This document shows, in pieces, positions 2,770 through 12,769 of a stretch of DNA of 64,000 nt. This stretch comes from Calditrichia bacterium (lineage in GTDB: Bacteria > Calditrichota > Calditrichia > RBG-13-44-9 > J075). Location of the stretch: positions 59,405 through 123,404 of the forward strand of contig JBOEGD010000032.1 of assembly GCA_050633245.1 (NCBI GenBank), in the 5' to 3' direction. Each line of letters begins with the position of its first letter. Position 1 is the stretch's first letter. The notes below the pieces were generated by a model. The model was not told the origin of the DNA, did not search any database, and was given only the letters and a program-made list of their open reading frames with translations. A program made the translations under genes and the position numbers.

Positions 2770-2864
2770 CGTTTAGGCTTAGAATACTTCGATAGTTGCA
2801 ACGCCTGTTAAAACGTCCTATATTTCCGGCCAATTTTATTTTGGGAAGCAATAGAAGGTTTATC

Positions 2865-4271
2865 ATGTCTGTAGATCATACACGTTCCTGGCGACATCAA
2901 ATTCCGCCGACTGTTGAAAAACGCCTCCAACGTCCGGAACTTCTGGATCGGCTGAAGGAGGGAGTTGCTCTTCCGGTAACCATTCTTTCTGCGCCGGCAG
3001 GCTATGGAAAAACAACGTTGCTTAGTCAATGGGCGGCCGATGCACCGAAAAAGATCGGCTGGTTAACCCTCGACCGTTTTGACAACGACCCGGCAGTTTT
3101 TCTTGAACATTTTGTTCATACCATGCAGCAGATTCAGCCATCCATCGGTAATGCTGTGTTCAAAATGCTTCAGGCTGAAAAAAAGCCCAAAATGGAAGAT
3201 GTCTTGAAACGCATGTTGGATGATGTTGCATTGGTTATGTCCGATTTTGTAATTGTTCTCGATGACTATCACGTTATCTACAGCCCGCCAATTCATGCGA
3301 TGATGACCTTTATTCTTACTTATCTGCCGCCGCAGATGCACGTTGTAGTTGCCGCGCAAACCGATCCGCCGTTTGGCGATCTTGCTCGTCACCGTTCCTA
3401 CGAGCGTCTGATGGAAATTCGCACGCCTTATTTTGGTTTCTCTGTGGATGAATGCGAAAAGTTATTAAAGCAGCAATTTCAAATAATGCTCCCCTACGGG
3501 CCGATCTCAGCTATTGTGGAGACGGCAACGTCCCGTCCGATAGCGATAAACTATGTGGCACTCCTCTTGGAAGGAGACGACAAGCCAGTAACATTTGTCG
3601 ATCAATATGAGAAATCTGATGGTGACTCGTTGGTGATGCCATTCGATGCTCTGCTGGAAAAAGTGGATGCTGAGCTACAGGATTTTCTGCGAGATATTTC
3701 AATACTCGATGTGTTTAATGCCGATGTTGCCGCTGCTGTATCGGGTTGTTCTGATGCAGCTGAAAAGCTGGTAATGCTTGCGGGAAAAGGCCATGTTGTT
3801 GAATACGTTGATAGCGATAAAAAGTGGTTCCGATTGCACTCATTGGCAAGGGAGCAATTAAACCTGCGTTTGCATCGCACAGGGCTTGAACACCTTGCTG
3901 AAATTCATGCTCGCGCCGGAAAGGTCTTTGCTGTTTTGGAAATGCCGTTTCCCGCATTCTTTCACTTTTCCGAAGCGGGTGAATTTGATTTCGCCGCGGT
4001 GTTGGTTGAACAATACAGCGCATCCTGGTTACAAAAAGGACGCATGTTGAGCATCTTGAATTGGCTGAAAGTTATTCCGGAAACAACGTTGGAAAAACGA
4101 CCACAACTTGCTATTACGTCGGCATGGGTTGCTCTGGTTGGCGGGGATGTCGAAAAAGTAGCTAAGTATTTAGAACTGGCAGACGCTGCAAAGGGGGAAG
4201 GCGAAGCGGCTTCAAAGATTGCCGAAAATATTGATGCGATACAGCATTTTATATCGCAGCGTCAACAATAA
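2865..4271 (+). CDS. MalT-family (STAND) ATPase with TPR-like region, lacking C-terminal LuxR HTH
   Basis: RPELLDRL, Walker A APAGYGKTT, WLTLD..DND, Walker B VLDDYH, FRLHSL; protein ends at about 470 aa with no HTH. Confidence 0.8.
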   Translation: MSVDHTRSWRHQIPPTVEKRLQRPELLDRLKEGVALPVTILSAPAGYGKTTLLSQWAADAPKKIGWLTLDRFDNDPAVFLEHFVHTMQQIQPSIGNAVFKMLQAEKKPKMEDVLKRMLDDVALVMSDFVIVLDDYHVIYSPPIHAMMTFILTYLPPQMHVVVAAQTDPPFGDLARHRSYERLMEIRTPYFGFSVDECEKLLKQQFQIMLPYGPISAIVETATSRPIAINYVALLLEGDDKPVTFVDQYEKSDGDSLVMPFDALLEKVDAELQDFLRDISILDVFNADVAAAVSGCSDAAEKLVMLAGKGHVVEYVDSDKKWFRLHSLAREQLNLRLHRTGLEHLAEIHARAGKVFAVLEMPFPAFFHFSEAGEFDFAAVLVEQYSASWLQKGRMLSILNWLKVIPETTLEKRPQLAITSAWVALVGGDVEKVAKYLELADAAKGEGEAASKIAENIDAIQHFISQRQQ

Positions 4272-4273
4272 CG

Positions 4274-7192
4274 TTACTCTCGCGTTGCACCGATTACGCG
4301 ATGCAGAGTTTCCAGCAGGCGTTCCGCAGTATATGGTTTTTGCAGAAACCCATCGACACTGCGTCCCAATAGCTCCGAAATCTTACTGTCTTCCATATAA
4401 CCACTTGATGCGATTATCTTTACGTGCGGATTGATTTTTCGAAGTGCACGAATGGTTGCGGCCCCATCCATTACCGGCATCATCATATCTGTAATAACAA
4501 TCGGTATTGCTTCCTGATGTTGCGCATAGAGCGCCACGGCCTCGGCGCCATCGTGTGCTAGCATTACGGAATAGCCATAGGTCTCAAGAGTCTCACGGGT
4601 GATTTCCAGGATTGATGTTTCGTCATCGACAACCAGAATGACTTCGCCCTTACCGGCTCGCATACCTCCTTCTTCTTCGATGATCTCTTCAGCTTCGAAA
4701 TCGACCAGTGCTGGTAAGTACACGTCAAACGTTGTTCCTTCTCCGGAACTGCTGTTAACGTTTACAAACCCTCCATGGCTGCCCACTATTGCCGATACGG
4801 TTGAGAGACCGAGTCCTGTTCCCTTGTCCATTGTCTTCGTTGTGAAGAATGGGTCAAAAATTTTATTGATAATATCCGCTGGGATTCCAGTGCCGCTATC
4901 CTTCACGCGAATGGTAACGTACGGACCTGGACGTGCATCAAGATGCACGCGGTTGGCCTCGGTAGTCAATTCCTGGTTTTCTGCGATTAGCTGGAGTTCT
5001 CCGCCCTCCGGCATTGCATCGCGTGCATTTACACATAAATTTAGCAAAACCTGATGGAGTTGCGTAGCATCGCCGGAAACGCTCCAAAGTGAACGTGGGA
5101 TACTACTTTCGAGTGCGACAGAGCGTGGGAATGTCTCTTCAATGATTTGCCGAATCTCATCCAGTATTTGCGTCATTTGCAGTGGAATGCGCTCACCTTC
5201 GACGCCACGAGCAAACGTCAGAATCTGCTTAATCATATCAGCACCGCGTTTTACATTGGCTTCGATGGTGTCCAGAATTCGCTGGCTTTTATTGTCATCA
5301 AAACGCACCTGTAGAATTTGTACGGCGGTTAAGATTGGTGCAAGTACGTTATTCAGATCGTGTGCAATACCGCCGGCCAGCGCGCCGATACTTTCCATGC
5401 GTTGAGCTCGTAGAAATTGAGATTCGATGCGACGTTTTTCGGTAATATCAGTATTGACAACCAGAATCGACTTAGCGCTGCCGTCATTTCCGCTCACCAG
5501 CGTCCAGCGGCTTTTGACGATTATTTCTTTGCCCTCTTTGGTCATCTGCGAGAGCTCACCCTGCCACTCTTCATGTTCCAAAACCGATCTTCTGCTGGAG
5601 ATAAACTGCTCTGAGTGATTCATAAAAAGAAGTTCGAAGGCATTCGTGCCAATTACTTCTTCCATTTTCCAGCCGTATAGCCTTTCAGCACTTTTGTTCC
5701 AATAGATAATATGATCATTCAGGTCGCATACCATAATGGCGTCCTGCGCTTTGTCCAAAAGCGCAGCCTGTTCACGAATTTGTGCAGCGGCCCGCTGTCT
5801 CGCTGAAATGTCGCGTGCGATAGCCATAATTGTTGGTTTATTCTTAAAATCGAAAAGGTGCGCACTCACTTCAACTGGAATCTGGTTTCCCGAACGAGTA
5901 AAGAATGTATCTTCATAGAGCAGGTAACGCTCTTCCTGAATCTCTGATAAACGTGACAAAAATGTTGATTCGTCTACCTGTAGAGCAATTTTACGATAGT
6001 CTGCCTTCAACAGTTCTTCTCTGCTAAAGCCCAGTTTGCGGCAGGCAACATCATTTACCTCAATGAACGGTGTCAGGTCGCCATCCGTACGCTGACGATA
6101 GACGAGCACGACATCATTCCCACTGTTAAACAGAATGCGGTATTTTTCTTCGCTTTCCAGCAGCTGTTCTTCGGCGCGTTTACGTACTTCAATTTGCTCT
6201 TTTAAAATACGGTTTGCCTGTGAAAGCTCGGCAGTGCGCTCCTCAACGCGATGCTCCAGACCATCTTTTGCCCGCTGCAGCGCAATTTCGGACGTCTGCA
6301 AATCTGCCGTGCGAGCCAGGACGCGTTTCTCCAGTTCATCCCGTGCATTTTTAAGCTGTGTTTCAACAGCTTTTCGCTCACTGATATCTGAGATAATACC
6401 AAACGATCCACAAACCTTACCATCTGAATTAGTAACGGGCACTCCGCTAATGGATACCCAAATTAGCGATCCGCTTTTTTGCACCATTTGAATTTCGTAC
6501 TGATCGGATACTCTTTTGGTGCGCAGCTTGTTTTTATTGCGAATAACCTTCTGCTCGCGCCGATTAAACAAAACAGTGTAACCGACCTTGCCAATGAGTT
6601 CGTCTTCGCTATAGCCAAGCATTTCGCAAATCCGTGGGTTAACGAAGCGAACGACATCATCATTATCTACGATCATTAAGCCTTCCTGCATATTTTCAAT
6701 CAGCGTACCGTATTCGCGGAGAGTTTGCTCCGTCTGCATGCGTACACTTAAGTCTTCTATGAAGAGCAGGATACTGGTATTACCTTCATAATCAATGGGC
6801 CAGGCTGTGGTTTGTAGCGGTAATTTTTCGCCACTGGAGCTTACCGCATACAATCTTGCTGTGCTCGCACTTTGCTTTTTAAATGCTTCCTGACATAGGC
6901 TTCTGAAAAGACGAAGTTGCTTTGGGAAAACAAAAGTAGTTTTCTGTTGAATGATTTCCTGCTTGGCATAACCCAGAAGATCAGTAGTTTTTTTGTTGAC
7001 GTCGAGAATTTTACTGTTATCGGGATTGATAATCAGGACGGCTTCACGACATAAATCGAATAGAGTTTGAAAGCGCGCGTTGCTACGAAGAAGTTCTTCC
7101 TGAAGTATTTCCGGATGATTGTGAGAGGAGGCTTCGTTTTGAGCCGGAACAGATGCAATAATACGCTGAAGTGGAGACTTGAATGTTTTCAT
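4274..7192 (-). CDS. Cytoplasmic multi-PAS hybrid sensor histidine kinase / response regulator
   Basis: Four PAS-like segments, H-box [39 protein letters not shown]-terminal REC (VVDDE, TDMMMP, KP). Confidence 0.95.
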   Translation of the reverse strand: MKTFKSPLQRIIASVPAQNEASSHNHPEILQEELLRSNARFQTLFDLCREAVLIINPDNSKILDVNKKTTDLLGYAKQEIIQQKTTFVFPKQLRLFRSLCQEAFKKQSASTARLYAVSSSGEKLPLQTTAWPIDYEGNTSILLFIEDLSVRMQTEQTLREYGTLIENMQEGLMIVDNDDVVRFVNPRICEMLGYSEDELIGKVGYTVLFNRREQKVIRNKNKLRTKRVSDQYEIQMVQKSGSLIWVSISGVPVTNSDGKVCGSFGIISDISERKAVETQLKNARDELEKRVLARTADLQTSEIALQRAKDGLEHRVEERTAELSQANRILKEQIEVRKRAEEQLLESEEKYRILFNSGNDVVLVYRQRTDGDLTPFIEVNDVACRKLGFSREELLKADYRKIALQVDESTFLSRLSEIQEERYLLYEDTFFTRSGNQIPVEVSAHLFDFKNKPTIMAIARDISARQRAAAQIREQAALLDKAQDAIMVCDLNDHIIYWNKSAERLYGWKMEEVIGTNAFELLFMNHSEQFISSRRSVLEHEEWQGELSQMTKEGKEIIVKSRWTLVSGNDGSAKSILVVNTDITEKRRIESQFLRAQRMESIGALAGGIAHDLNNVLAPILTAVQILQVRFDDNKSQRILDTIEANVKRGADMIKQILTFARGVEGERIPLQMTQILDEIRQIIEETFPRSVALESSIPRSLWSVSGDATQLHQVLLNLCVNARDAMPEGGELQLIAENQELTTEANRVHLDARPGPYVTIRVKDSGTGIPADIINKIFDPFFTTKTMDKGTGLGLSTVSAIVGSHGGFVNVNSSSGEGTTFDVYLPALVDFEAEEIIEEEGGMRAGKGEVILVVDDETSILEITRETLETYGYSVMLAHDGAEAVALYAQHQEAIPIVITDMMMPVMDGAATIRALRKINPHVKIIASSGYMEDSKISELLGRSVDGFLQKPYTAERLLETLHRVIGATRE

Positions 7193-7340
7193 AGCGGTGA
7201 ACCGTCTTTACCGAAGATCAATAATAAAGATCATTTTCTAAAATATAGCAGTGTTGAGAAGAAAGATTGTGAGGAAAACGACGATATGCGAAATAGTTCG
7301 CATATCGTCAAGATTGTGCTGTTTTATGAAATAGCGGAGT

Positions 7341-9383
7341 TTACTCCACCGTCGCAAGATTTCGATCGAGAACCTGCCGGATCTGCTCAACTACTTTTTT
7401 CGGTGAATAGGGCTTTTGTATAAAGTCATTTATACCGGCCATCTCCATGCGTGTCTTAAGCTCCGGATCGAAGTATCCGCTGGCAAATACTGCTTTTACT
7501 CCCGGCTCAATAGCCTGCATTTCCGTAAAGGCTTCAAATCCACTTTTCTCTGGTAGTCCCGAATCAGCAAAAACAAGATCGATGGATTCACGTTGCTCCT
7601 CAAAAACACGAACGGCTTCTTCACCGTCTCTGGCGACAAGAATATTATATCCGTTTCGTTCAAAAATTGTTGATAACAGATTCACCAGCATATGTTCATC
7701 TTCTACAATAAGAATGGTTTCCGTGCCTGTCGTTGGAGCCAGTGCTTGTCGTTTCTCTTGTTTGTCTACGGAAGATGTGGCCACTGGTAAATAGATGTGG
7801 AAGCTGGTTCCGTGGCCCAACTCGCTTTCCAATTGGATAAAGCCGGCATGATTGCGAATAATGCCGTAAACCATAGCTAATCCTAACCCGGTTCCTTTAC
7901 CGTGCTCTTTCGTTGTAAAAAACGGCTCGAATATCCGCTGCTTTGTTTCCGCATCCATACCGGTTCCATTATCAGAAACAGTAATGTGAGCATGTGAGCA
8001 CTTTTGAGCTTCCGGATTCAGCTTTATCATCTCATCAGCGGAAATGGTTGTCGTGTGAATCTTTATAATGCCCCCACCGGGCATCGCATCTCTTGCATTG
8101 ACGCATAGATTTAGAAAAATTTGATGAAGCTGATTTTGGTCACCCCAAATTGGAGGAAGCTTTTCAGCAAGCTCGAGGTTGAATAATATGGTTTTGGGCA
8201 GTGTCCCCCCAAGCATCAGAGTTAAATCGCGAACTGTTTGATTCACTTTAATAGGCTTGAACTTGGCGTCCGACTTTCGTGCAAAGGTGAGAATTTGTTC
8301 AACCAGGCTTGCTCCTCTTCCAACTGCTTGATGAATTGCGCTGATACTTTCATCCAGTTGGCTGGACAAAGGTTTATTTTGTCTTATTAGAGACACGTGG
8401 CCTAAGATAATTCCCAGAATGTTGTTGAAGTCGTGGGCGATGCCACCGGCCAGCGTTCCAATACTTTGCATTTTTTGAACCTGAAGAAGCTGTTCTTTAA
8501 GTTTTGTCGGTTCAGTATTATCAAAAATATAACCGCGAATTTCAACAAGCTGTCCGTTTTTATCGAGGATGCCACTGACATTTTGAATGATATAAACAAT
8601 ACTGCCGTCAACTTTCTTAAGCTTACGCTGGTCGTATTCCAACTTGCTGTCTCTGGTTACAGCTTGTAAAAAACTTTCGTAGTCCTTACGCGAATTATAG
8701 AGTGACTGTAGCCTTTTGTGCGCCACATCGGTAGGATTGCTAAAGCCAAAGATCGATGCAAATGCCGGGTTACATGATAATATCTCGCCATCGGGATTGG
8801 CAACAAAATCTCCGGTCAGATCTTCCAAAAAGAAGCGTCGATAGTTTTCTTCGCTCTTTTTGAGCGCTGCTTCTGCTTTGCGCTGTTCAGTTACATCTCT
8901 GGCGATACCTTCGATCCGTTTTGTGCCCGTTTCACCCTCAATTAAAATGCTGCGATATTGAAAGATACGTGGATTTCCATTTTTGCTAAGAAGCGACAGA
9001 TAGCCGTTTGCCTGACGATTCTCAGTAATGTTATCGAGATAGGTTTGCAGCAGCAACTTATCAGCGGGCGTATTCGGAATGAGTTCAAATAACGATTTAT
9101 CAATGAGCTCACGCACGGAATAACCGAGTTCGCGGGTTGCAGCAGCATTCATTTGCTGAATAATGCCCTCATCAGAGTGCGAGAAAACGATATCTGAAAT
9201 GTTATTAAACAGTTCGCTATACTTGCGCTCACCATCAATGAATATCTGTTCTTTTTCTATAGCGTCATTGATGTGGCGTTTTCTGTAAAGCGAAAGAGCA
9301 ATTACAATTGCCCAGGCTAAAATGATGAGTGTGATACTCGCAAATAAAGTGAATTGCAGAATATCTATTGATGTGATGGACAA
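7341..9383 (-). CDS. Membrane-anchored PAS hybrid histidine kinase (one N-terminal TM, 2 PAS, HisKA, HATPase, REC)
   Basis: N-terminal hydrophobic helix, [42 protein letters not shown]. Confidence 0.93.
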
Positions 9384-10003
9384 AACAGCCCTCCGGCATA
9401 GAGCATGTTAGCAATTGTTGTTACCCCCCACGATACAGACCAGACGACAAGAACACTGGCAGGAGATAGGTGGATAATTTGGTTACTGAAGCAAAAGATT
9501 GGAATTGTTCCAATAAAATAGGTTAGCACACCTGCTGAGATCCAAAACCTGCTGTCTGTATATTGAGATGTATAATTGTCCATGTAAAGTTTGACAAGTG
9601 TATGGACGGCTACTCCAACCAGAATAACGCGTGAGATAGACGAGGTAACGGAGTCGAATTTACTGAGAGTTCCCAGGTAGAATGTGGCAAAAACACAAAT
9701 GAGGCTAAAGATGATTGCCGTTGTAAGCATTATACTCTGAACCTTTTTATCTTCCTGCCAAAAGGCAAAGGCACTCATAAACAACGCAAACTCGATAGGC
9801 GTATAGATATGGTGTAGCCATAGATTTTGGGTTCCGCTCATAGCAAGATAAACACCAACGAAATCGACGATGGCGTGTAAAATGAACAGGCAGATCAAAA
9901 TTTTCATCGGTATCGAGGCTTTACGAAAGAAATAAAGCCCGATCAATGATAGCAGTACGTCAGTGATCAACTGCAAAAAGAATAAGATTGGTAGATCGTT
10001 CAT
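9365..10003 (-). CDS. 7-TM integral membrane protein, putative receptor partner of the adjacent kinase
   Basis: Seven hydrophobic helices; motifs NLWLHHIYTPIEF and FWISAGVLTYF; overlaps the kinase start by 19 nt. Confidence 0.8.
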   Translation of the reverse strand: MNDLPILFFLQLITDVLLSLIGLYFFRKASIPMKILICLFILHAIVDFVGVYLAMSGTQNLWLHHIYTPIEFALFMSAFAFWQEDKKVQSIMLTTAIIFSLICVFATFYLGTLSKFDSVTSSISRVILVGVAVHTLVKLYMDNYTSQYTDSRFWISAGVLTYFIGTIPIFCFSNQIIHLSPASVLVVWSVSWGVTTIANMLYAGGLFCPSHQ

Positions 10004-10217
10004 AATTGATCCAGAGTCCTTTCATCAAAGAAAATGGATTTAGATGACACGCAACATGTATAATATGCGTTAACTATACAAAAGGCATGTGACCCAATAG
10101 CAGGATTTGTCTTTGTGATTTTTTCAAGGTAACAAGGGCGCAAGACACTATCCTCCATGATTATGTCTTCAGTGGTTTTTTGATAATCGGCAGGAATGAA
10201 GAAAAAGTTTAGGGTAC

Positions 10218-10258
10218 AAAAAAACAGGGACTTTCACATTGACAATGGAAAGTCCCTG
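10218..10258 (-). terminator. Rho-independent terminator of the 10300-10743 gene
   Basis: cagggactttc...gaaagtccctg stem preceded by an A7 run on + (U-tract on -). Confidence 0.8.
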
Positions 10259-10299
10259 ATGGTACTAATAATCTTCCGGGCAGGAGAGGGTTTAGCGAA

Positions 10300-10743
10300 T
10301 TACTTAGCTAATTGTGCTTTCGCCATGGACACATTGCTGTTTAGGGGGTTTTCGTCAAAGCAGAACGGCGGGCATGGTAGAGCCATTTCAGCAAGCTCAC
10401 CGTGAATCATATCCCGGTTTTCTTTGTCGACGCCAACGAGAACTAAAACATTCTCGCCGTCAGCATTTAGTCCGTGGTAATAGCGAAGACCCATTACACC
10501 ATCCTGGCTCATAATGCGATCAATGGCGGCACGTGCAAAAAAGCCACCCACCTTAGTTTCGCCCTCATCCATTTGAGAACGATAGCGAGCCGTAAACTCG
10601 GCTGCTTCATCGAGGCTTACAACATGTGTATCCTCGAAGGTAACCATCTTAGAATTATCTTCTGCACCCTCTGTCAGCGCCCACATCGTAACGCTGAAAA
10701 ACAGTACAGTAAGAATTGCTAATGTTATTTTTGTTGCTTTCAT
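10300..10743 (-). CDS. Small secreted protein with PCPPFC motif, unknown function
   Basis: Signal peptide (MKATKITLAILTVLFFSVTMWA), SLDEAAEFTARYR, GGFFARAAIDRIMSQDGVMGLRYYHG, LVLVGVD, PCPPFC; GGAGAGG RBS upstream on -. Confidence 0.85.
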   Translation of the reverse strand: MKATKITLAILTVLFFSVTMWALTEGAEDNSKMVTFEDTHVVSLDEAAEFTARYRSQMDEGETKVGGFFARAAIDRIMSQDGVMGLRYYHGLNADGENVLVLVGVDKENRDMIHGELAEMALPCPPFCFDENPLNSNVSMAKAQLAK

Positions 10744-11236: not shown

Positions 11237-12769
11237 CTAAATATCAAATTTAATGCCCTGAGCGAGTGGTAAGGAATGTCCATAATTAATGGTGTTGGTT
11301 TGACGACGCATATACGCTTTCCAAGCGTCTGAACCAGATTCTCGTCCACCACCTGTTTCTTTCTCACCACCGAATGCACCACCAATCTCAGCACCCGACG
11401 TACCGATGTTTACGTTGGCAATCCCACAATCCGAACCGGCCTGGGAGAGGAACATTTCGCTTTCCTGAATGCTATCAGTGAAAATCGCGGAAGAGAGTCC
11501 CTGGGTTACATCGTTTTGCAAAGCAATCGCGTTTTCAATGCCGCCAGTATATTTCATCAGGTATAGAATAGGAGCAAATGTCTCTTCTTTGACAATTTTA
11601 AAGTCTGGTTCAGCTTCAACAATTGCGGGTCTTACATAGCAACCAGATTCAAATCCTGCGCCTTCCAATACTTCATTACCACAGGCAATTGTAGCGCCTT
11701 CCTTCTGAGCATGCTCTAGTGCTTTTTTATAGGCCATAACAGCATGTGTATCGATAAGCGGACCAACGTGATTATTTTCATCAAGCGGTGAACCAATTCT
11801 AAGGCTGGAATACGCCTTAACCAGAGAGTCTTTTAAGCGATCGTACATCGACTCGTGAATAAATAGTCTGCGTGTGCTGGTACAGCGCTGTCCGGCGGTT
11901 CCGACTGCGCCAAAGACCACGGCGGGAATGGCCAGTTTCAGGTTTGCATTCGGAGAAATAATAATGGCATTGTTGCCACCAAGCTCAAGAATGCTTTTGC
12001 CAAAACGACGTGCCACGGTTTCACCGACATGCCTGCCAACGCGAATTGAACCAGTGAAGGAAATAAGCGGGACGCGCTTGTCATTAATCAGCGTTTCACC
12101 GATTGTGTCATTATCGCCGATCAATAGGGTGAATACGCCTTCAGGGATATCGTTTTCTTTTAGGACATCCTGAAGAATATGCTGGCAGGCAATCGCAGTC
12201 AGCGGAACTTTTGGAGAAGGTTTCCAGAGGTTTACATTACCACATACGGCAGAAATCATGGCATTCCAGGCCCAAACAGCTACCGGGAAATTGAATGCGG
12301 TAATAGTACCGCAAATTCCAAGCGGATGATACTGCTCATACATGCGGTGGCTCGGGCGTTCCGAGTGCATGGAAAGACCGTATAGCTGGCGTGATTGCCC
12401 AACAGCAAAGTCGCATATGTCGATCATTTCCTGTACTTCGCCGAGACCTTCCTGAAGCGATTTCCCCATTTCGTAGGATACCAGTTCGCCCAGAGGCTGT
12501 TTGAAGTGGCGAAGGCGCTCACCTATTTGGCGAACAATTTCACCACGCAACGGAGCGGGGATATTCCTCCAGTGTAAAAATGCTTCCTGAGACTTGGCAA
12601 TAACTGTTTCGTAATCGCTCGCGGATGCCTTGTAAACAGAGGCGATTTGTTTTCCGTCTACGGGAGAAGTAACAACAAATTCACCCTCAGATGTGGTCTC
12701 GAGCCAGTTGAGACCGGTAGAGGCGCCAAAATTCTTTTCTTTTAATCCGAGTTCCTGTAAAATCTTCAT
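11237..12769 (-). CDS. Aldehyde dehydrogenase family 7 (piperideine-6-carboxylate / alpha-aminoadipic semialdehyde dehydrogenase-like)
   Basis: [67 protein letters not shown]. Confidence 0.92.

Follow-up and report, generated by a model that had tools for sequence, protein, structure and literature searches.

The question raised by the locus described here is how a histidine kinase that has no sensor domain outside the cytoplasm might be supplied with a signal. The locus lies in a stretch of 64,000 nucleotides (nt) from a Calditrichia bacterium (GenBank assembly GCA_050633245.1, contig JBOEGD010000032.1, positions 59,405 to 123,404), which was analysed at its full length and is referred to below as the window. 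The minus strand at positions 7341-10743 holds three genes, encoding a small protein of 147 amino acids (aa) with a CPxxC motif (10300..10743; open reading frame (ORF) call and family alignments A1 and A3), a free-standing protein of 212 aa with seven transmembrane (7TM) helices (9365..10003; ORF call and AlphaFold2 (AF2) model) and a hybrid histidine kinase of 680 aa (7341..9383; Pfam and transmembrane (TM) prediction). These genes had been singled out in a preliminary description of the window, and the ORF calls confirm that all three are real, co-oriented and encoded on the minus strand, as are the features within and between them that are described below. We lean towards the view, which rests on comparisons of sequences, that they represent a widespread three-component module in which the 7TM protein would be the membrane input subunit of the kinase and the CPxxC protein an auxiliary partner.

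The kinase and its linkage to a 7TM protein

The window kinase begins with a stub of 11 residues, which is followed by one TM helix (residues 12-30; 9294..9350, TM prediction), the basic stretch YRKRH, two cytoplasmic PAS domains, HisKA, HATPase_c and a receiver. The PAS domains occupy residues 54-168 and 193-291 by Pfam (8511..9224 for residues 54-291; PAS_9 at 1.4e-22 and PAS at 5.1e-18), and every NCBIfam match of the protein is far under its cut-off. Translation is predicted to start at a TTG (9381-9383) that lies 19 nt within the end of the 7TM gene (9365..9383, from the ORF calls) and has a GGAGG 6 nt upstream, an arrangement that suggests translational coupling of the 7TM protein and the kinase. 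The preliminary description was right about the overlap with the 7TM stop, the one N-terminal TM helix and the missing extracytoplasmic sensor, but it erred in calling the kinase "sensor-less", because two PAS domains are present and only an extracytoplasmic sensor is missing.

The same economy at the membrane characterizes the kinases that adjoin 7TM genes elsewhere. All 19 complete 7TM-adjoining kinases have an N-terminal TM helix, which is the sole predicted one in 17 and is accompanied by a weaker second stretch in the other two, and TM prediction for a second set gave exactly one TM helix and no outside domain in 34 of 34. The helix of the window kinase aligns without internal gaps to the N-terminal helices of 18 other 7TM-adjoining kinases, and the layout that they share consists of a short stub, the helix and then basic residues. 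These kinases fall into three classes, i.e., HisKA hybrids, kinases of the HisKA_3/NarL type, and short kinases with an NtrC-type regulator. The genome from which the window comes has 99 kinase-like ORFs, of which only 3 combine the stub with a single helix and a basic stop, and two of the three sit behind the only two 7TM genes of that genome. The second of these 7TM genes (contig C10, L070:3689-8645; L numbers denote mapped loci) extends past the start of the gene for a PAS-HisKA_3 kinase of 972 aa, which has one N-terminal helix and is followed by two REC-GerE regulators, with no small gene at that locus. Overall, 51 same-strand pairs of 7TM and kinase genes were compared, and in 43 of them the two genes overlap or are no more than 30 nt apart, as judged from longest-ORF starts.

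The linkage was mapped in the window's own phylum over ~16 kb around every hit, by using custom family profiles and Pfam; ORF starts are longest-ORF calls throughout, and the related genomes do not represent independent samples. In the related genomes searched with the profiles (61 and 86), both families proved nearly confined to one taxonomic family, where the small protein occurs in 11 of 15 genomes and the 7TM protein in 14 of 15; the rest of the phylum yielded the 7TM protein in 1 of 70. Among 26 small-family loci, 16 are directly upstream of a same-strand 7TM gene, two more end at a contig edge, and another two (L043 and L046) have a divergent 7TM-like gene upstream instead. A histidine kinase adjoins 18 of the 24 7TM loci. 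It is encoded directly downstream of the 7TM gene in nine (the window, L041, L045, L050, L064, L065, L069, L070 and L057), while a convergent pair consisting of a PAS-HisKA_3 kinase and a REC-GerE regulator abuts the 7TM gene in nine of the 24; L061 was not scanned and one further locus is at a contig edge.

Some of the Calditrichota loci have departed from the usual arrangement. The anchored small genes at L046:6481-11294 and L043:7001-11589 (G007) are preceded by the divergent 7TM-like genes, which encode multi-helix proteins of 288-299 aa with a cytoplasmic N-terminal extension and 28% identity to each other; one of these loci is next to Mu-like portal and F genes together with an HTH_26 gene, and the other is next to a gene for a 1019-aa LRR-Roc-COR protein. 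At L062:8047-9792 (G011) the small and 7TM genes are in several ORF pieces beside an intact kinase-regulator pair, and from its sequence the locus has the appearance of a module that is degenerating.

The preliminary description had mentioned a linkage of small proteins, 7TM proteins and kinases in the Bacteroidota. When genome and metagenome collections were scanned with alignment A5, a tight subgroup of 111-aa small proteins without a signal, all four genome loci found from the small protein (metagenome-assembled genomes of Bacteroidota and Ignavibacteriota/Ignavibacteriae) had a 7TM gene 2-10 nt downstream. The same was true, at a distance of 1-13 nt, for 15 of 17 metagenome loci, one of which duplicates a genome locus; the other two end with the contig. 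Behind the 7TM gene, the A5 loci encode a second, anchored small paralogue or a second 7TM protein and then a PAS kinase with one TM helix.

So that the sample would not depend on the small protein, the 7TM profile was applied by itself to 301 genomes drawn evenly from the Bacteroidota/Ignavibacteria phylum. It detected the family in 50 of them (E<=1e-8), and 40 loci, one per genome, were then chosen by the 7TM hit alone. In 36 of these loci the 7TM gene is directly followed by a co-oriented gene with a kinase core, the four exceptions being a TM-PAS ORF followed by a kinase (L172), a TM-PAS ORF only (L168), a regulator (L174) and neither (L173). A small-family gene precedes the 7TM gene in 23 of the 40 by the iterated profile and in one more at E 5e-4, and five further unassigned ORFs upstream of 7TM genes in this set end in CPxxC by eye. 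Most of the kinases in the set are minimal proteins of 241-281 aa with HisKA_3 from residue 53-65, then HATPase_c, and a REC-GerE regulator gene next (Pfam). Such kinases have no sensor domain, which leaves the 7TM protein as the only candidate input there. The linkage is thus borne out and proves wider than was claimed, and the profiles and synteny show the three families conserved together across genomes of at least two phyla. Because the arrangement recurs in dozens of genomes and at least two phyla, it is far beyond chance. Two tandem 7TM paralogues stand between the small gene and the kinase at L097/L117, L106, L118, L119, L120 and L184, and to judge from these sequences they hint at hetero-oligomeric 7TM units.

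The 7TM protein and the small CPxxC protein

AF2 models the 212-aa protein as seven helices (pLDDT 95.5, pTM 0.91), in line with its preliminary description as a seven-helix membrane protein without enzymatic motifs. It has no Pfam hit at E<=0.1 and no NCBIfam match, a profile search of the PDB sequences came back empty, and when 60 of its relatives were compared singly to Pfam, no family was common to more than two of the 60 at E<=1. Its nearest relatives are annotated solely as "hypothetical protein [Calditrichota bacterium]". Word-index searches for homologues gave 15 hits for the small protein and two for the 7TM protein; an exhaustive search later showed that the 7TM family is large, with 1137 cluster representatives at E<=0.001 that range from 119 to 291 aa among the 150 listed. 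Clusters of Lys and Arg assign loops 1, 3 and 5 to the cytoplasm, and all 25 homologues checked have the N-terminus out and the C-terminus in. Conserved polar residues are buried in the bundle (H65, T68, E71, Y162, N199 and Y202), and C208 is nearly invariant at the cytoplasmic end of helix 7.

As modelled, the fold is that of a generic GPCR/rhodopsin-like, receptor-like seven-helix bundle. VIA matched the 7TM protein to GPCRs, to designed folds of the GPCR type and to microbial rhodopsins with Z-scores of 11-13 and no standout among them, while Foldseek produced no E-value <0.02. For the rhodopsin fold the Z-scores are 11.6-12.9, and the conserved helix-7 positions (W188, H191, N199 and Y202) include no Lys of the kind that binds retinal in microbial rhodopsins. 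Among the structural neighbours listed by the Atlas, at TM-scores of 0.64-0.70, are sensor kinases and 7TM-GerE proteins, in each case through their membrane regions. We rejected the automatic name "Lysoplasmalogenase" that one Atlas cluster carries: no Pfam family supports it, and YhhN is absent among the 25 listed of the 46 families that match 7TM relatives at E<=1.

The small protein opens with MKATK and 18 hydrophobic residues (residues 1-24; 10672..10743), which have a hydropathy of 2.35 and are modelled by AF2 as a helix at residues 3-24. This segment is a predicted signal peptide or signal anchor, and the charges that flank the helix favour an orientation with the N-terminus in and the domain out. 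Near the C-terminus is the motif PCPPFC (residues 123-128; 10360..10377), which is followed by a conserved N-x-L-N-S and a variable tail; C124, P125 and C128 are invariant in alignment A1. The gene is succeeded by an intrinsic terminator (10218..10258) that consists of a hairpin at 10225-10258 and seven T residues at 10218-10224. It begins 42 nt past the stop and folds at -25.2 kcal/mol (z -4.89; none of 200 shuffles folds equally well), and it was overlooked by the consensus scanner and recovered by folding against shuffles. All three features that the preliminary description gave to this gene, i.e., an export-type N-terminus, the cysteine motif and a terminator of its own, are therefore seen, with the proviso that the first may be a signal peptide or an anchor.

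Across the family the small domain has the core GGFF..I..IL.Q..GLRYYxG..G..LVLVGVD..G.D...CPPxC...N.LNS, and 73 of 79 distinct members have CPxxC near the C-terminus. An N-terminal export or anchor segment is present in 27 of the 79 and missing from the other 52. Many members are tandem two-domain cytoplasmic proteins that have kept the cysteines in the second domain only, and a tree built from the individual small domains separates the first domains of these proteins from the second ones by clade. The alignments show that the body of ~100 residues is a conserved folded domain and that the cysteine motif is conserved rather than strain-variable. The AF2 model of the window protein (pLDDT 75.9) has an alpha/beta core, and its C-terminal 40 residues, which include the cysteine motif, are poorly defined. 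There is no match to the small protein in Pfam, NCBIfam, PADLOC or PHROGs, and no Pfam family is common to 47 small-family sequences (whole proteins as well as the separate domains of tandem ones) that were scanned singly. The preliminary description had named a structural match to an unrelated enzyme as a finding that would speak against its reading; Foldseek, VIA and PDB searches revealed none, and neither a fold match (best Foldseek E 0.22, best VIA Z 3.5) nor a profile sequence match was found in the PDB. Weak PepSY-like and CopG rows among the fold matches were not trusted.

The window's genome has a second small-family locus on contig C18 (36320-36934; L056:8012-8680), where a tandem pair is split by a stop into separate ORFs, one for the first domain (89 aa) and one for the second (117 aa, with VPCPPWC). 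Neither has a signal, there is no 7TM gene nearby, and the pair is flanked by an amino-acid permease-EIIA fusion and a 1378-aa SNF2 helicase. In some operons of other genomes, a small copy without a signal and an anchored small copy are found on opposite sides of the 7TM gene.

A candidate split sensor and its alternatives

The 7TM proteins are partnered with three classes of kinase that have nothing but the single helix in common, and many of these kinases are without an input domain. A split sensor is the most economical reading of the comparisons. The evidence fits the proposal of the preliminary description that the 7TM protein is the separate receptor subunit of the kinase. The 7TM protein would be a membrane-embedded subunit for input or signal transfer, one that perceives or relays a cue from the membrane or the periplasm, and the kinase would be held at the membrane solely through its short stub and one helix. 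The two proteins would be co-produced from their overlapping genes and would pair helix to helix in the membrane, with residues 12-30 of the kinase docked on the 7TM protein, which would then set the balance of kinase and phosphatase activities in the cytoplasmic PAS-HisKA-ATPase-receiver part. We infer both this physical contact and the direction in which the signal would flow. Since the 7TM protein is found with kinases at loci that have no small gene, and with a small gene at others that have no kinase, it is probably the hub of the module.

The tight and widespread coupling of the small and 7TM genes argues for a direct partnership of their products. The small protein of the window would be exported to, or anchored on, the periplasmic face, where as a partner of the 7TM protein it might modulate signalling, and the redox or metal state of the Cys-Pro-Pro-x-Cys tail could be the means of doing so. 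The cysteine pair may report redox state or a metal, a role that is conceivable from the motif. By analogy with SaeP, which is considered below, we favour an auxiliary, modulatory role for the small protein. One can go further and suppose that in the Bacteroidota, Ignavibacteria and Calditrichota a GPCR-like 7TM protein has become a plug-in sensor for blind single-helix kinases, with the CPxxC protein as its ligand or as a thiol or metal co-sensor and with paralogues acting on either face of the membrane; we regard this bolder version as possible but doubtful.

Several observations weigh against the split sensor. The two PAS domains of the window kinase could sense independently, and in the window the small gene is set apart from the 7TM gene by a terminator and a gap of 296 nt. 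Among the loci of the window's phylum, six of the 26 with a small gene have no 7TM gene (L042, L047, L048, L053, L056 and L063), and four of the 24 with a 7TM gene have no kinase nearby. No longer form in which a 7TM region is fused to a kinase was present among 7999 candidates, although this is weak evidence. The 27 small proteins with an export or anchor segment and the 52 without one both adjoin 7TM proteins of a single topology, and therefore one binding face cannot account for all cases; either the small domain acts on both faces of the membrane or its two forms differ in function. Finally, the convergent kinase-regulator pairs of many Calditrichota loci are transcribed separately from the small and 7TM genes, so that these two genes could be the target of such a system rather than its input.

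This last point leads to the best of the alternatives, although we judge it unlikely: that the small protein and the 7TM protein are a regulated output of the neighbouring two-component system, e.g., an envelope-stress or transport pair, which perhaps feeds back on the system without being its primary sensor. The nine Calditrichota loci with a convergent, separately transcribed kinase-regulator pair would be explained in this way, and targets adjoin their regulators in systems like LiaRS (PMC3543457). An output role does not, however, explain why a same-strand kinase gene, in most cases overlapping, is found behind the 7TM gene in the window and in 36 of the 40 loci of the Bacteroidota phylum, why the minimal kinases are devoid of any further input domain, or why the single-helix architecture tracks the 7TM protein over three classes of kinase.

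The preliminary description had itself inferred something different for the small protein, namely an Agr-like form of cell-to-cell signalling in which this protein, or a disulfide-closed peptide made from it, is the secreted signal and the 7TM protein the receptor that relays it to the kinase. There are likenesses to Agr in the combination of a cysteine-bearing small product with a polytopic membrane protein and a kinase, and in the acidic or variable tail past the cysteine motif. The window copy has an export-type segment and a terminator of its own, which fits expression above that of the receptor, its C-terminal 40 residues are modelled at low confidence as a free tail might be, and both the receptor-like fold of the 7TM protein and the conserved linkage are as expected. 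The AgrD precursor, however, is a short peptide of ~46 aa whose core varies, whereas the small protein has 147 aa, a conserved domain of ~100 residues in place of a leader, and a cysteine motif that does not vary between strains. An export segment is missing from 52 of the 79 family members, many of which are tandem two-domain proteins, and the mapped loci have no recurrent gene for maturation, be it for a peptidase of the AgrB type, an ABC exporter or anything else; the 7TM protein, with no Pfam hit at E<=0.1, does not pass for an AgrB. Nor are the kinases AgrC-like: AgrC is polytopic, and the kinase of the window has one TM helix and HisKA, and its score with HATPase_c_5 is 14.1 bits against a cut-off of 22. 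The Agr regulator is of the LytTR type, and those next to the loci analysed here are of the GerE or NtrC/sigma-54 types. The idea of a secreted protein or peptide ligand is thus left unsupported, and we think it quite improbable.

It is also rather implausible, in our estimation, that the 7TM protein is a membrane enzyme or exporter which acts on the CPxxC tail (a thiol-disulfide oxidoreductase, peptidase or translocator), with the kinases merely co-regulated neighbours. What speaks for it is the spacing of 1-13 nt between the small and 7TM genes in all 15 metagenome loci where it could be determined, the nearly invariant Cys208 and conserved His65 of the 7TM protein, and the fact that small proteins without a signal, if they are exported, would need another route. 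But 7TM and kinase genes occur without a small gene at L064, L065, L066, L067 and L070, and 17 of the 40 loci of the Bacteroidota phylum have no profile-detected small gene directly upstream. The 7TM protein has a single conserved Cys rather than a CxxC pair, and the fold search lists receptors and rhodopsins but no enzymes. From the topology, moreover, His65 would be near the outer end of helix 3 and Cys208 is at the inner end of helix 7, so that the two could not form a dyad. That the three genes are neighbours without any functional connection is hardly credible, for although a few loci carry just one or two of the parts, the same order in at least two phyla and in dozens of genomes with differing flanks already contradicts it.

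Surroundings, known systems and implications

The unit formed by the 7TM and kinase genes ends at a terminator-like hairpin of 14 pairs (7279..7310, minus strand; terminator consensus scan). It is followed on the same strand by a second hybrid kinase of 972 aa (4274..7192; Pfam and TM prediction), a soluble protein with no predicted TM helix that has four PAS_9 stretches, HisKA, HATPase_c and a receiver. This kinase is conserved downstream, with counterparts of 1120-1137 aa at the orthologous loci L041, L045 and L050, and the whole order of the window (aldehyde dehydrogenase, small protein, 7TM protein, hybrid kinase and large hybrid kinase) is repeated at these loci in three other genera. An ORF of 52 aa at 10000-10158 on the minus strand, whose stop overlaps the 7TM start (ATGA), was rejected as a gene because it is not conserved, the gap between the small and 7TM genes at L041 being only 24 nt. 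The aldehyde dehydrogenase gene is upstream of the small gene (11237-12769 in the window) and occupies the same place at L041, L045, L050, L042 and L044. One gene beyond it at L041, L044, L045 and L050 is a GAF-HD (HD_5) protein, and at that position the window has argininosuccinate-lyase-like and hydrolase genes. On the plus strand at 2796-4271, divergent from the second hybrid kinase, is a gene for a 491-aa protein with sub-threshold matches to AAA_16/STAND NTPases.

No description of the module was found in the open-access papers searched (subscription journals were outside the search). Searches with the motif strings retrieved only conopeptides and unrelated texts, and those for accessory or standalone 7TM sensors brought up no account of it. 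The closest described layout is that of SaePQ-SaeRS in Staphylococcus aureus, where a small exported protein and a polytopic one are encoded before an intramembrane-sensing kinase in an order and at sizes that are strikingly alike. According to PMC5083920, SaeP is a lipoprotein of 146 aa and SaeQ a four-helix membrane protein of 157 aa encoded ahead of the kinase, and a ternary complex of SaeP, SaeQ and SaeS switches on the phosphatase activity of the kinase. There are also clear differences. SaeQ has four helices as compared to seven here, SaeS has two helices and a short linker as compared to a single helix, and many of the CPxxC proteins are cytoplasmic, unlike the exported SaeP. Moreover, SaePQ is dispensable for activation, whereas many of the kinases considered here have no other input domain.

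A second relative in layout is LiaFSR, with its accessory membrane gene, its HisKA_3 kinase with a minimal outside part and its NarL/LuxR-type regulator, in exactly the order seen in the loci of the Bacteroidota phylum (PMC3543457). LiaFSR and the proposed split sensor would have in common the logic that an accessory protein transfers the signal and the kinase does not perceive it directly. The differences are that LiaF is not a 7TM protein, that Lia has no counterpart of the CPxxC partner, and that the window kinase is a large PAS hybrid. LiaF acts as an inhibitor. Searches of Pfam and NCBIfam gave no sign of a family shared by LiaF, SaeP or SaeQ with the module, as the small protein and the 7TM protein match no entry of either. 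With the intramembrane-sensing three-component class to which Lia, Sae and Bce belong, the window kinase shares a negligible extracytoplasmic part (the 11-residue stub and the helix) and an adjoining accessory membrane protein in conserved linkage (a kinase adjoins 18 of the 24 7TM loci mapped in the window's phylum, and 36 of the 40 from the Bacteroidota phylum).

Kinases with a 7TMR-DISM_7TM domain (PF07695) likewise have a seven-helix input module, which serves kinase or HTH outputs; here, in contrast, the module is encoded by a separate gene, and the search among 7999 candidates, weak as evidence, gave no fusion. The 7TM protein of the window has no hit to PF07695, of 60 relatives a single one has a hit, at E 0.06, and hhalign of the 7TM family against the five 7TMR-DISM_7TM domains of the window's genome gave a probability of 0.33%, from a template alignment that is thin.

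The module would vary the known theme of accessory-protein-dependent kinases, and it is built from two unnamed families. The families that have been left nameless by current libraries, i.e., the 7TM family with its 1137 cluster representatives and the CPxxC family, are hereby defined, and a 7TM partner is encoded ahead of a kinase in 50 of the 301 sampled genomes of the Bacteroidota phylum, as well as in the majority of those from a single Calditrichota family. Histidine kinases without a sensor domain are common in nature, and for most of them the manner of signal reception is open; for a large set of them the module offers an answer that can be tested, and in its minimal form (the small protein, the 7TM protein, a kinase of ~260 aa and a LuxR-type regulator) it is small enough for reconstitution. 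If the bolder version, with a plug-in 7TM sensor and a dedicated CPxxC protein, is real, it would represent a new principle of receptor-to-kinase coupling in bacteria, one that may be at work in about one in six of the species sampled from a major phylum.

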